Below, in pieces: positions 41,657 to 46,871 of a stretch of DNA of 64,000 bases; position 1 is the stretch's first letter; the number at the start of each line of letters is the position of its first letter. The DNA comes from a virus, in the IMG/VR virus record IMGVR_UViG_3300037156_000189, positions 10,764 to 74,763 of that record; one strand, written 5' to 3'. The position numbers and the translations under genes were made by a program. The notes under the pieces are model-generated. The model did not search any database. It was not told the DNA's origin and saw nothing but the letters and a program-made list of their open reading frames with translations.

Positions 41657-41866
41657 ATGCCTTGGGCGCCGAAAGAATCTTCCCGGTTTACGAAGAAGGC
41701 CAAGTCGCCGAAGCGCAAGCGCCAGTGGGCTCATGTCGCGGACTCCATGTTTGAGCGAACCGGTGATGAGGGAGCCGCGATCCGTGCGGCCAATGGCGTG
41801 GTTCGCAAGTCTCGGTCCAAATCCTCTGCCCATCATCGTGCCCCCAGAAGGAGTTATCGCTCGTGA
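41657..41866 (+). CDS. ChaB-like small basic protein
   Basis: MPW...RQWAHVA......DEGAAIRAANGVV. Confidence 0.7.
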   Translation: MPWAPKESSRFTKKAKSPKRKRQWAHVADSMFERTGDEGAAIRAANGVVRKSRSKSSAHHRAPRRSYRS

Positions 41867-44295
41867 AGGTTCATCTGTTGACTCGTGTCTTTCTTCTCTC
41901 CGTAATTCTCTTCCTGCCTTCCGTCGCTCTCGCCTCTCCTCCCTCTGGTGGATACTGCATGAATCCCTCTGGCGCGTGGATACCTATCGCCACGCCGTCC
42001 GGTATCGCCTTCCCCGGCGCCCCTCCCTCGACAGGTCTCTACGGCAGTTCCGACGGTGGCGCGACTTGGTTCCCTCTTCAGTGCGATGCCAGCGGGAATC
42101 TGGCCGCGCTTCCCGCAGGTTGGACGGTAACAGGCACAGGATCATCGCAGGTAGTTACAGCGCCGGGAAGCCTCAAGATACCCTACTATCTGGCGGTCGG
42201 TACGCCATTCAATCTGACCAATTACCCAGGCACGGGTTTTTCGGTAAGTGAAGCGGCAGCCAGCGGAGGTTACGAACAGGCGATTATGCAAGACCAAACC
42301 CCCAGCGGGCAAGGGTGCTGGATCGCGCAGTCGGACGACGGCACGAATGCAACACATTACGCCGAGTTCTGCATGAACAACAGCGTTGCTCCCAACCCGG
42401 CGAACGTGTATTTCACCAATCCGCATGCTGCGACGGTATACAACGCAGACGGAGAATTCGATATCGCGGCGGGCTTGGTAACAGGGGGAACACCTGCCGG
42501 GGCGATAAATTTCTACGTCGATAACACGTCGCCGCAAGGGACGGGGCCGGTTGCGAAGATCACGTCCTCCGGAATTGCGGCCGTGAACCAGCGCGACGTG
42601 AGCAACCCGCTGCTGCAAACCTACAACGCCGCCTTGCACAATGCCGCCAACGCACCAGTTTCCATCGTGTTTATGATGGACAGCTACGCCAACTGCGGGG
42701 GACTCACGCTTTACGTGAACTGCGACATCACCCAGGTGCAGCGGTACCTGCAGACGAAGTTTGGATCGCACGGAACTGGATTGATTACTCCGGTTGCCGC
42801 TGGCGGAATTATTGGAGCGCTGACAGTTTGGACAACTAATCCTGCTATGGGACCGACACAGACCGGGTACGGAACCAACTTCAACACCCTCTACGACGGG
42901 ACAGTTGCTTCAAATTCGATGTGCACGACCACAGCGCAGTACACCGACCATTGGAACATCTACTACGCGACGTTCACAGACACGGCATCGGGTTTCGGTG
43001 TGACGGTGGATGGCGGCGGCGCAACGACCTATGGGGCGACGACCAGCGGCAGTTACACGGCGGCGGTGCAGAACATCTCCGTGGCGGCAGGCTACCACAA
43101 CATCTGCGTGGTCCCGCCCGCCTCTGGGAAGGTCCACATATATGCGTTGCAGGGCATCGTGGGCACGACGGGCGTCGAAGTAAGCATCCTCGGCAACGGC
43201 GGCGCGGTCTCGGCATCCCTTGCAACCGCTCCAGCCGCGCAGATGGCGTTCCTGAGCGTGATGACTCCAGTCCCTCAGTTGTTCATCGTTACGGACAACG
43301 TCAATGAAGCTGGCAACTCGGTTCCGGTGGCGACCTACACGGCGAATATGGGCACGATCCTGACGCAGTTGGCAACGCTCTCAACGCCGGGGCCGTCTGT
43401 GCTGATGTTGGATGAGGCGAATGCTTCGACCGGGGAAAGCGGCAGCGTGAAACAATCGGCTCTGCGGGTGGCGGAAGAGTCTATCGCGCAGTTGAACAAC
43501 CTGGCCTTTGTATCGATGGCGCAGCGGTGGGGAACCTACGCGAATGCGAGCTCACTCGCCTTGATGAACGGAGACGGTATTCACCCCTCAGACAAGGGGC
43601 ATCTGGACACAGCCGCGATGATTCTGGAGCGTATCGACGAGAACGCGAACAACTATCAGTACCGCGATGGAGCATCGAATCTGTTCATAGGGAGCATTCC
43701 GAATTTCATCAATAACTACATGAACACAGGGCTTGGGCTGGGGGGCTCTGGTGGGACTGGAAACAGCACGAACTACCAGAACACATGGGCTGGGTATCAG
43801 TCCTGCTCTGCGATCACTACCGGCCACAACAATGTGTGTATCGGAAGGTTCGCGGGTGGCAACAACCTGAGCAGCGGCAGCAGCAACGTGGCAATCGGCG
43901 ATGGGTCGGGATTGAAAACCGCAGGCGACGGTAATGAGGATGTGATCGGCTCGGGTGCAGTTGGAAACGGCTCCAACACCGCAACCATCGGCAACTCTTC
44001 CCTCATTGGAACGTGGCTCAAGGGCACGATGCACTTTACCGGGACCGCCCCAACTGCTAGTGCGGGTAGCGTCACAGGCTCAAACGCTGGCGGGACGATT
44101 GCCAGTCTGACCGCTGCCACTACAACCACGTTGACATTCAACACCGCATCGCCGTGGACGGTCTGGAGTTCATGTACAGCCTCCGCCAGTGCCGCGGCTA
44201 CCCCGGTGCAGGTGAGCGCGATCAGCTTGACGGCGGTGACGTTTACGTTTGCGGCGCTGACGGGTAGCGTCTACTATCAGTGCAATGGGAACTGA
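41863..44295 (+). CDS. Tailspike-like protein with signal peptide, SGNH esterase domain and beta-roll repeats
   Basis: MKVHLLTRVFLLSVILFLPSVALA|S; SGNH blocks MDS, GNGG, NVNE and DGIHP; NVCIG/NVAIG repeats; 12 Cys. Confidence 0.8.
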   Translation: MKVHLLTRVFLLSVILFLPSVALASPPSGGYCMNPSGAWIPIATPSGIAFPGAPPSTGLYGSSDGGATWFPLQCDASGNLAALPAGWTVTGTGSSQVVTAPGSLKIPYYLAVGTPFNLTNYPGTGFSVSEAAASGGYEQAIMQDQTPSGQGCWIAQSDDGTNATHYAEFCMNNSVAPNPANVYFTNPHAATVYNADGEFDIAAGLVTGGTPAGAINFYVDNTSPQGTGPVAKITSSGIAAVNQRDVSNPLLQTYNAALHNAANAPVSIVFMMDSYANCGGLTLYVNCDITQVQRYLQTKFGSHGTGLITPVAAGGIIGALTVWTTNPAMGPTQTGYGTNFNTLYDGTVASNSMCTTTAQYTDHWNIYYATFTDTASGFGVTVDGGGATTYGATTSGSYTAAVQNISVAAGYHNICVVPPASGKVHIYALQGIVGTTGVEVSILGNGGAVSASLATAPAAQMAFLSVMTPVPQLFIVTDNVNEAGNSVPVATYTANMGTILTQLATLSTPGPSVLMLDEANASTGESGSVKQSALRVAEESIAQLNNLAFVSMAQRWGTYANASSLALMNGDGIHPSDKGHLDTAAMILERIDENANNYQYRDGASNLFIGSIPNFINNYMNTGLGLGGSGGTGNSTNYQNTWAGYQSCSAITTGHNNVCIGRFAGGNNLSSGSSNVAIGDGSGLKTAGDGNEDVIGSGAVGNGSNTATIGNSSLIGTWLKGTMHFTGTAPTASAGSVTGSNAGGTIASLTAATTTTLTFNTASPWTVWSSCTASASAAATPVQVSAISLTAVTFTFAALTGSVYYQCNGN

Positions 44296-45714: not shown

Positions 45715-46871
45715 AGATATTCATTGTCCTGATTTTGGCATTCAGTTCCGCGATTGCCCAAGCTCAGGTGGGGGCAAGCGAAACCCAGGCGACGTTGACC
45801 TCTACACCGCCACCCCCGCCGACAGGGAACATCACTTTCTCTCCTGTGGCTGGTACGTATACCGGTGCGCAGACCATTACCATCTCGACCACACTGGGAA
45901 GTGGAAGCGTGTTCTGCACTACGGATGGAACGCCGGCCAATGCTGCCGCTACGTTTGTGGGGACGGCTCCAGCGGGCATCGGAGGCGTGGCGGGTACGAT
46001 TTCCGTCCCCGTTTCCGAAACGCTCAACTGCCAAGCCGTGCAGGGTGCGGTGACTCATCAGAACCTGCAAGCTTCATCTTCGGGATGGAAAGTGGTTATC
46101 GCCACCTGCACCGTGAGCGGAGTCAATGTCTGCAACCGTGGCACACCAACGGCCACATCGGGCGGCGGCGTAGGAAGCACTGTCCCGACGACCTGGACCT
46201 ACACATGGGGCTCTCCACTCTCAGAAAGCATGACCAGCCCTGCTTTCGTGCAGATTCTGGCGCCGTTCTCCGGGTCAAGCAACGACAACGCAACGATGCT
46301 GGTACAGCGCAAGATTGCGCAGTCAACCACGGCTAGCCCTAATCCACAAAACAATGAAGCGGATTCACAGTCTTTCGATTCGACACACAAGGTTAGCGGT
46401 CTGACGATTGAGCACAATTTCGGTCTCCAGTGCGAACAAGCTTCCGATACTAGTTGCCCTGGCCATTGGGCTATAGGCGGTGGAAATTCCAGTGGTTCCG
46501 ATCACTGGGCCTGCACATCCATAACGGCATCCTGTCCATGGCCAGCGAACACTAACGTCGAGTTTGCGACTCAGGGGCACTGGACGATTGGCGATACTGG
46601 ATGCGCTGGCTACGGGTGCATGTACTACGACTGGCTTGAGATCAACGGAGCCAGATACGACCTCAGCACTACGCAGTGGGTGACCGGATTTCCGTTGGGG
46701 GCAATGGCCAACGAGACGAAAACATGGTCTAGTTTTATGGGATCACAAGACCAACTCGACCAGTACAACACCACCATGACCATCGGACGCAAGGTGAACT
46801 ATGCCGCGGTGACTGTGGGGACGTATTCGGCAACGCCGGTAACCGGATCAGCGCCCTATGTCATTCACTAG
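45711..46871 (+). CDS. Secreted adhesin-like protein (CHB_HEX_C/Fn3-associated plus lectin-like domain)
   Basis: MKIFIVLILAFSSAIAQA|Q; TFSPVAGTYTGAQTITIS...TTDGTP; 10 Cys. Confidence 0.75.
   Translation: MKIFIVLILAFSSAIAQAQVGASETQATLTSTPPPPPTGNITFSPVAGTYTGAQTITISTTLGSGSVFCTTDGTPANAAATFVGTAPAGIGGVAGTISVPVSETLNCQAVQGAVTHQNLQASSSGWKVVIATCTVSGVNVCNRGTPTATSGGGVGSTVPTTWTYTWGSPLSESMTSPAFVQILAPFSGSSNDNATMLVQRKIAQSTTASPNPQNNEADSQSFDSTHKVSGLTIEHNFGLQCEQASDTSCPGHWAIGGGNSSGSDHWACTSITASCPWPANTNVEFATQGHWTIGDTGCAGYGCMYYDWLEINGARYDLSTTQWVTGFPLGAMANETKTWSSFMGSQDQLDQYNTTMTIGRKVNYAAVTVGTYSATPVTGSAPYVIH

Follow-up and report, generated by a model that had tools for sequence, protein, structure and literature searches.

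Secretion-type leaders and paired cysteines on the fibre- and spike-like proteins of an uncultured T7-like-tailed peat phage

Results

Four fibre-, spike- or adhesin-like genes begin with predicted secretion leaders

Tailed-phage morphogenesis is taught as a wholly cytoplasmic process. Here we analyze four genes of an uncultured, T7-like-tailed phage from peat, all encoding fibre-, spike- or adhesin-like proteins, that begin with predicted secretion leaders. The window, by which we mean the whole 64,000-nucleotide stretch of DNA analyzed, comprises bases 10764-74763 of the 74,763-bp IMG/VR virus record IMGVR_UViG_3300037156_000189, that is, the last 64 kb of a linear 74.8-kb contig (CheckV 97%); positions refer to the window unless contig positions are specified. 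A preliminary description of this DNA had placed three of the genes (41863, 44446 and 45711) between those for the terminase and the portal, and the fourth (63286) after the ejection genes. These positions hold, with the corrections that two further open reading frames (ORFs; 39168-40253 and 40528-41484) also lie between the terminase gene and the three, and that 63286 is not a separate small gene: it encodes the first 238 amino acids of a 1280-residue tailspike.

Signal peptides were called with a home-made, rule-based scan of n-, h- and c-regions together with comparative evidence. Across approximately 101 non-overlapping ORFs of the whole contig, convincing Sec/signal peptidase I (SPase I) leaders were predicted for these four only, the remaining flags falling on short or antisense ORFs, which confirms the four basic-hydrophobic-Ala leaders noted earlier. 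Each combines a basic n-region, with at least one K/R ahead of the hydrophobic run, a Leu/Ile/Phe-rich run and an AxA-type site; the predicted cleavage sites (arrows) are ALA↓S, ICA↓Q, AQA↓Q and IFA↓Q, with Gln at +1 in three of the four. All lie on the plus strand. The leader of the 41863 product, P0001, is VKVHLLTRVFLLSVILFLPSVALA↓S (41863-41934) and follows a GTG start with GAAGGAG 9 nt upstream, while that of the 44446 product, P0002, is MKIKALLVLACLGFPFTICA↓Q (44446-44505), with an ATG start and AAGGAG upstream. The 45711 protein begins with MKIFIVLILAFSSAIAQA↓Q (45711-45764), its ATG overlapping the stop codon of 44446, and the tailspike with MTMTMKRIFIYLFLTFIVAPIFA↓Q (63286-63354). Starts that include the leader are preceded by Shine-Dalgarno sites or translational coupling, and no leaderless fibre or spike candidate was found in the source phage genome (G000). 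Lipoprotein and Tat signals were considered for the window genes and rejected, as the leaders lack both an RR motif and a suitably placed lipobox.

A variable cassette between the terminase and portal genes

P0001 (41863-44295, plus strand; 810 amino acids, signal peptide residues 1-24) has, after its leader, an N-terminal module (YCMNPSGAWIP) and then an SGNH/GDSL-like esterase region that an insert interrupts; YadA-like NxxIG repeats follow, and a β domain lies at the C-terminus. The SGNH domain previously proposed for this protein is represented by a match to PF13472, although at 27.7 bits over residues 439-580 it falls under the gathering cut-off of 32.9. PF13472 also appears in the precomputed hits for P0012 and P0013, the latter bearing the JGI name lysophospholipase L1-like esterase. 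Candidate SGNH blocks, recognized by eye only, are block I (FMMDSY, residues 270-275) and block V (DGIHP, residues 571-575), and the insert of approximately 150 residues lies between blocks I and II. The N-terminal module of P0001 is likewise preceded by a leader in P0014, in a 420-residue protein of two related loci (L059/L071) and in a 677-residue protein of another near-complete genome (G002). P0012, a database gene call of P0001, starts at Met33 and so omits the leader; homologues that start with ATG retain it, and the Met33 start looks like a gene-caller choice.

P0002 (44446-45714, plus strand; 422 amino acids, signal peptide residues 1-20) comprises, after the leader, a variable N-terminal β domain, the fibre motifs ANTWTLQQTF, LTTTGSSGAATLGGGILNIPVY and LTTTGSSGAATL..LNIPVY, and a C-terminal domain of approximately 250 residues that is kept among homologues whose N-terminal parts differ. 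The motifs ANTWTLQQTF and LTTTGSSGAATLGGGILNIPVY here, and the NxxIG repeats of P0001, are those that the preliminary description had pointed out. Translationally coupled to P0002 is the 45711 protein (45711-46871, plus strand; 386 amino acids, signal peptide residues 1-18), which consists of a Pro-rich linker, a CHB_HEX_C_1 carbohydrate-binding-type domain (residues 45-113) and a Cys-rich C-terminal domain that matched no known family; an ESM Atlas search returned merely weak CHB_HEX_C_1 neighbours. Neither P0001 nor the 45711 protein had a match in PHROGs, NCBIfam or PDB sequence searches, and P0002 had none in PHROGs, NCBIfam or a PDB search with the P0002 family profile (A1); a scan of bacterial genome contigs for the P0002 family also found nothing.

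The mature chains contain 12, 6 and 10 cysteines, as counted before, and these fall into near-neighbour pairs: 32/74, 152/170, 278/287, 354/415, 648/659 and 771/807 in P0001; 95/112, 274/290 and 368/419 in P0002; and 69/107, 133/141, 241/249, 268/275 and 298/303 in the 45711 protein. The leaders are conserved along with the genes, A↓Q leaders being present in seven of seven P0002 homologues and a leader in all homologues of the 45711 protein (three loci), and no leaderless homologue of the three cassette genes was found. In three relatives (L002/L003/L004) a P0002-like gene followed by a 45711-like gene, both leader-bearing, occurs within the fibre cluster.

The gap between the terminase and portal genes spans 0.4-4.5 kb among 67 portal-related loci. 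Most have no large gene there; in some, the gap holds another fibre-like gene with a leader, or encodes a small protein of 112-123 residues that likewise has one. Because the gap varies and most relatives lack a large gene in it, we regard 41863, 44446 and 45711 as accessory cargo in a hot spot. The small leader-bearing proteins (...A↓TTPRLIQVTLGTGATQ...) are encoded just upstream of the portal gene (L024 9361-9729, L031 9585-9956, L032 9381-9719 and L034 3601-3939). A contig from one peat run (X7) joins 44427 to 46903 with GTAAA between them, so that P0001 is kept and the 44446 and 45711 genes are deleted. The cassette arrangement is real, since contigs of independent peat runs span 40802-44921 as well as the boundary of the cassette with the portal gene. 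All informative runs with the cassette are peat metagenomes; among the public runs listed, no RNA run carries it.

The canonical tailspike and its N-terminal module family

The tailspike gene is cut by the end of the contig: its first 238 codons lie at 63286-64000 (plus strand) and the remainder at contig positions 349-3473, the full-length protein having approximately 1280 residues. The last 127 nt of the contig (window 63874-64000) are identical to contig positions 222-348, and the continuation is a 1127-residue ORF at the contig start with right-handed β-helix repeats (PF13229, E = 6.3e-11). A 1280-residue protein from another contig, P0165, shares 93% identity with the window part and 98% with the contig-start ORF; it joins both halves, which confirms a single wrapped tailspike gene. 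The first 221 nt of the contig encode a different, 5'-open upstream branch (NQGQIYIDNLNGQIY...) in frame with the same tailspike body (L097 1-348), which probably reflects strain variation or an alternative N-terminus in the assembly graph.

In its layout the protein comprises a leader, a conserved N-terminal module (residues 24-148, QIPSGFVQTTATVP...NPCGGGSGG; 63355-63729, plus strand) that is predicted to be a β-sandwich with two Cys pairs and is presumed to be the tail-anchor domain, a Gly hinge and a β-helix depolymerase-like body. A leader-bearing gene with this module lies directly after the Cys-free ejection genes in five near-complete genomes (G000-G004). In four near-complete relatives the mature protein starts, as in 63286, with Q-(I/S)-IP-(S/A)-G-(F/Y)-(V/I)-Q-(T/A)-TATV, and up to three further leader-bearing proteins follow the tailspike in the near-complete relatives. 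Both the leader and a Shine-Dalgarno site were present at 15 of 15 tailspike module loci. That 63286 is the lineage's canonical tailspike is well supported by these observations.

When a profile of the first 150 residues was searched against 1.84 billion representatives (E at most 1e-3), the module was found in 241 clusters, the match almost always beginning within the first few residues. It is carried on proteins of 170-2084 residues with varying bodies, including Beta_helix, pectate-lyase-like and SGNH types. For the 126 family members with a full leader, the median leader length was 21 residues (interquartile range 19-25) and the median uncharged run 15; K/R was present in all 126, position -1 was A in 92 and G in 19, position +1 was Q in 120, and position -3 was A, L, S, V or I. 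Within the close family, pairwise identity was 24% for the leaders and 69% for the module. Such drift in sequence with retention of leader properties points to selection for Sec/SPase I function rather than for a structural contact. In a minority of the family the leader includes a lipobox-like LTAC before PLPAPA↓QIPSG (P0035, P0036, P0050, P0061; L085 2917-3030), and these members might be lipoproteins.

Paired cysteines accompany the leader

Cysteine content follows the leader across the family. The mature chains of 108 of the 126 leader-bearing members have an even number of cysteines (binomial p = 7.9e-17), and the other ORFs of at least 100 residues in the source phage divide into 41 with even and 30 with odd counts. 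Within the module, C62 and C91 were both present in 41 representatives, both absent in 99 and single in none. We also found 15 distant homologues that are leaderless, the module beginning at residues 2-4. These contain 0.72 cysteines per 100 residues, versus 2.06 in leader-bearing members (Mann-Whitney p = 5e-8), their parity is random (7 of 15 even) and they have no fixed pairs. Leader and disulfide signature are therefore gained and lost in step. One leaderless homologue, P0139, has a body similar to proteins annotated as tail spikes in cultured phages of Corynebacterium, Bacillus and Vibrio, which ties the N-terminal module to genuine tailspikes. For another, P0125, no viral locus and no match in the phage collection were found.

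The leaders resemble those of the likely host

Short contigs carrying this portal (86-89% identity) have been binned in genomes labelled 'uncultured Terracidiphilus sp.' and 'uncultured Acidobacteria bacterium'. From two such bins (G006/G007, L098-L127) we sampled CarboxypepD_reg-type secreted proteins with a recognizable leader, a single protein family, and found the A/G↓Q site in 27 of 28. The phage leaders thus copy the site of the likely host's own secreted proteins, and one host bin also encodes a glutaminyl cyclase fragment (Glu_cyclase_2, L130). A habit of Gln at +1, the 'Q-rule', has been published for Bacteroidetes in a study that does not include Acidobacteria (PMC5837995); the one protein family sampled here hints at a similar preference in Acidobacteriaceae. 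A Bacteroidota host, which Gln at +1 might suggest, was set aside given the strong Shine-Dalgarno sites, the occurrence of the portal in Acidobacteria bins and the use of A↓Q by those bins.

A cultured parallel is provided by the Tunturiibacter phages Tunturi 1 and 2 (PP887698, PP885685), podophages of Acidobacteriaceae (PMC11924767). In Tunturi_2, A↓Q-type leaders precede gp12, gp13 ('tail fiber protein'), gp14 ('pectin lyase') and gp17 ('virion structural protein'), which have 10-34 cysteines, and the small gp16 also has a leader. The N-terminus of gp12 is 43% identical to the fibre of one relative of the source phage (L003), and gp13 shares the LTTTGSSGAATL..LNIP motif with P0002, whereas the core genes of Tunturi_2 differ from those of the source phage; the portal, P0001, P0002 and P0004 had no match in the collection of cultured phages. 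The Tunturi paper does not mention signal peptides and contains no virion proteomics (PMC11924767). Binning alone is weak evidence for a host; the peat habitat, the cleavage-site match and the sharing of modules with the Tunturi phages agree with it, and the host is probably an acidobacterium, a diderm of the Acidobacteriaceae.

Discussion

Comparison with known systems

Podovirus fibres and tailspikes such as T7 gp17, P22 gp9 and Sf6 gp14 are attached through an N-terminal anchor. The 63286 protein resembles them in its conserved module of approximately 125 residues, its hinge and its exchangeable β-helix or enzymatic body, and its gene, unlike 41863, 44446 and 45711, occupies the same place after the internal-virion/ejection genes. 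The T7, P22 and Sf6 proteins, however, fold in the cytoplasm without a signal peptide or disulfide bonds, whereas the proteins described here have leaders and paired cysteines. No sequence match or reliable fold match of the 63286 module to known anchor domains was obtained (VIA Z at most 7.3). In vitro, the P22 tailspike is the last part to join an already finished head, so late docking of a spike is mechanistically possible. Virion proteins with Sec leaders are well known from the filamentous phage Ff, in g3p and g8p, the former being disulfide-bonded in the periplasm before it joins the particle; inoviruses, however, assemble at and are extruded through the envelope, whereas the source phage is tailed, terminase-packaged and assembled in the cytoplasm.

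Phages of Porphyromonas gingivalis also have genes with leaders that obey the Q-rule (PMC10367356). Like those described here, these leaders copy the host's signal peptidase I site with Gln at +1, although the genes concerned encode proteins of no assigned function, capsid proteins and spanins of Bacteroidota prophages, and tail fibres are not mentioned among them (PMC10367356). A cellular analogue is offered by the mosaic adhesive trimer (MAT) fibres of Bdellovibrio bacteriovorus, which are described as phage-fibre-like mosaic surface proteins with exchangeable adhesive tips (PMC10769870); these are proteins of a predator and not phage-encoded.

Fibres and spikes that may be added to the particle late

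Given secretion-type leaders together with paired cysteines, the four proteins very probably pass through Sec and SPase I and acquire a disulfide-bonded fold outside the cytoplasm, and it is on this sequence evidence that we infer their actual export and disulfide formation. The preliminary description had suggested export and oxidation followed by addition to virions or remodelling of the host surface. Its first part is borne out by the drift of the leaders, the host-like A/G↓Q site, the even and co-varying cysteines and the Cys-poor leaderless homologues; the mechanism finds partial support. Our best explanation, to which we would give an even chance, is that these are receptor-binding, polysaccharide-modifying proteins of the tail-fibre/tailspike class that are made as Sec substrates and dock late, at or after lysis. 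As part of this explanation, and with the same balance of confidence, the cassette proteins, all of the same class as 63286, would be an esterase fibre of SGNH-like type, a fibre whose C-terminal domain is conserved and the lectin-like protein coupled to it.

According to this explanation, the leader, being of the likely host's type, would be cleaved by SPase I, and the N-terminal Gln left by cleavage could cyclise to pyroglutamate. The spikes and fibres would pass through the inner membrane to become oxidised and fold in the periplasm, and the heads and tails, whose adaptor, nozzle and ejection proteins are without leaders, would be built in the cytoplasm. The oxidised spikes and fibres would then dock through their N-terminal modules only once the holin breaks the inner membrane, at or after lysis. 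Late docking onto tails is the step that we infer only: if the protein is exported and 63286 is indeed the canonical tailspike, spike and tail can come together only once the inner membrane has been breached. What raises our estimate of this step, although it stays short of even, is the conserved anchor module, its leaderless homologues (one of which has a body of tailspike type) and the lack of any leaderless fibre or spike candidate in the source phage genome. More tentatively, and with the balance of our judgement somewhat against it, this could extend to a large clade of soil and peat podophages in which all receptor-binding spikes and fibres are exported, oxidised and docked when the holin opens the membrane, so that infectious particles are completed at lysis.

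If true, virion assembly would gain a compartment and a final step that it was not known to have, and there would be an explanation for appendages that are disulfide-stabilised, and possibly capped with pyroglutamate, for acidic, protease-rich peat. Phage yield would depend on the Sec, SPase I and Dsb machinery of the host, host-range prediction would be affected, and such depolymerases, when expressed heterologously, would have to be made in an oxidising compartment.

Several observations weigh against late addition to the particle. The three cassette genes are dispensable, as most relatives do without them and a natural variant has lost two, and this fits cargo that is not part of the virion at least as well. 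Their N-terminal modules have no detectable similarity to the canonical anchor module; a docking module shared by 44446 and 63286, as claimed in a related note, was not upheld (hhalign probability 1.4%). The AlphaFold2 models are of low confidence, both for P0004 (five sequences; pLDDT, the predicted local distance difference test, 49, with 56-75 in the module) and for P0002 (six sequences; pLDDT 36), and a VIA wide search with the low-confidence P0004 model gave as its best hits (Z 7.3) generic transthyretin/Ig-like β-sandwiches. The siphovirus Tunturi_4, from the same host genus, has leaderless tail proteins, so the leader trait is not forced by the host. The hypervariable insert of the 906-residue nozzle-like protein could itself be a receptor-binding site on the particle. 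Full-text literature searches found no description of secretion leaders on the fibres or spikes of any tailed phage, and to our knowledge no tailed phage adds exported parts to its particle.

Alternative readings of the leaders

The strongest alternative, which we nevertheless regard as less likely, is that the proteins are exported but do not join the virion, acting instead on the envelope or matrix of the infected cell from the periplasm or after release. They could deacetylate or cut exopolysaccharide or lipopolysaccharide or mask a receptor, and so block superinfection, stop progeny sticking to debris or loosen the matrix, and the particle would recognize its host otherwise, for example through the variable insert of the nozzle-like protein, a hypervariable stretch with a weak F5/8-type-C-like character. 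Such a role would suit three accessory genes that sit in a variable hot spot apart from the tail genes, that encode enzyme- or lectin-like domains (SGNH-like, CHB_HEX_C_1, β-helix), that in the case of P0001 and P0002 have N-terminal modules unlike the canonical anchor, and of which a natural variant lacks 44428-46902; the leader-bearing genes of the Porphyromonas phages have likewise been interpreted as host-surface modifiers (PMC10367356). It accounts less well for the tailspike. In every relative examined, the 63286 module (69% identity) heads differing bodies in the classic tailspike slot, and at least one leaderless protein that carries the module (P0139) has a tailspike-type body. No leaderless candidate was found in the source phage that could serve as fibre or spike in its place, the P0002-like and 45711-like genes lie inside the fibre cluster of L003-type phages, and a soluble depolymerase freed at lysis needs no signal peptide.

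Alternatively, the leaders might not be used for export, being buried in the tail, cut by another protease or overwhelmed at late expression, with fibres assembling in the cytoplasm and their cysteines oxidising only after release. In its favour, cytoplasmic fibre assembly is what textbooks describe for every tailed phage studied. A database gene call for P0001 begins at Met33 and so omits the leader, and the existence of leaderless homologues means that the N-terminal module can work without export. We nonetheless consider this reading improbable, as leaders of 24% identity all keep K/R, an uncharged run of approximately 15 residues and a host-identical A/G↓Q site, co-occur with a threefold higher Cys content and strict even parity, and are included by starts that have Shine-Dalgarno sites ahead of them.

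It is very improbable indeed that the pattern is an artefact of mis-called starts, chimeric assembly or chance hydrophobic N-termini: this is a metagenome assembly whose last 127 nt repeat contig positions 222-348 and whose first 221 nt encode a different upstream branch, but contigs of independent peat runs bridge 40802-44921 and the cassette/portal junction, the 1280-residue protein of another contig joins the tailspike halves, and the leader recurs across more than 120 independent clusters as well as in the genome of a cultured phage.

Other features of the genome

The structural genes of the source phage lie on the plus strand. The terminase large subunit (37597-39291; phrog_2, E = 2.9e-18) is followed, beyond the cassette, by the portal (46902-48677), for which the 67 related IMG/VR loci show 63-94% identity, and by a podovirus-type major capsid protein (51587-52597; NF033394, 119 bits). 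Two leaderless core tail proteins of 451 and 906 residues (53205-57282) look, by eye, adaptor-like and nozzle-like, comparable to T7 gp11 and gp12, and four leaderless proteins resembling ejection or internal-virion proteins (58651-63289) contain no cysteine. Within the 906-residue protein (54562-57282), residues approximately 248-404 form a hypervariable stretch; many relatives align only over residues 1-247 (33-41% identity) and 405-906 (59-82% identity), and residues 267-347 give a weak F5/8 type C (discoidin-like) match. Candidate lysis membrane proteins are encoded downstream of the tailspike (contig positions 4735-6359), but no endolysin was recognized.

Between the nozzle-like protein gene and the ejection genes is a GNAT acetyltransferase gene (57452-58162); the structural region of Tunturi_2 also holds an acetyltransferase (gp35). 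The annotated replication block comprises a family-A polymerase, an SNF2 helicase, a DUF2800 nuclease and a methylase. Three HNH-AP2 homing-endonuclease-like genes occur in the window (20496-21284, 25134-25922 and 36746-37465), one of them directly upstream of the terminase gene. In four relatives (L044 2990-5755; L031, L064 and L022) the match to the terminase large subunit is split by approximately 1.07 kb (residues 1-479 and 479-564), which suggests an intron, an intein or a homing-endonuclease insertion; the terminase gene of the window is uninterrupted.

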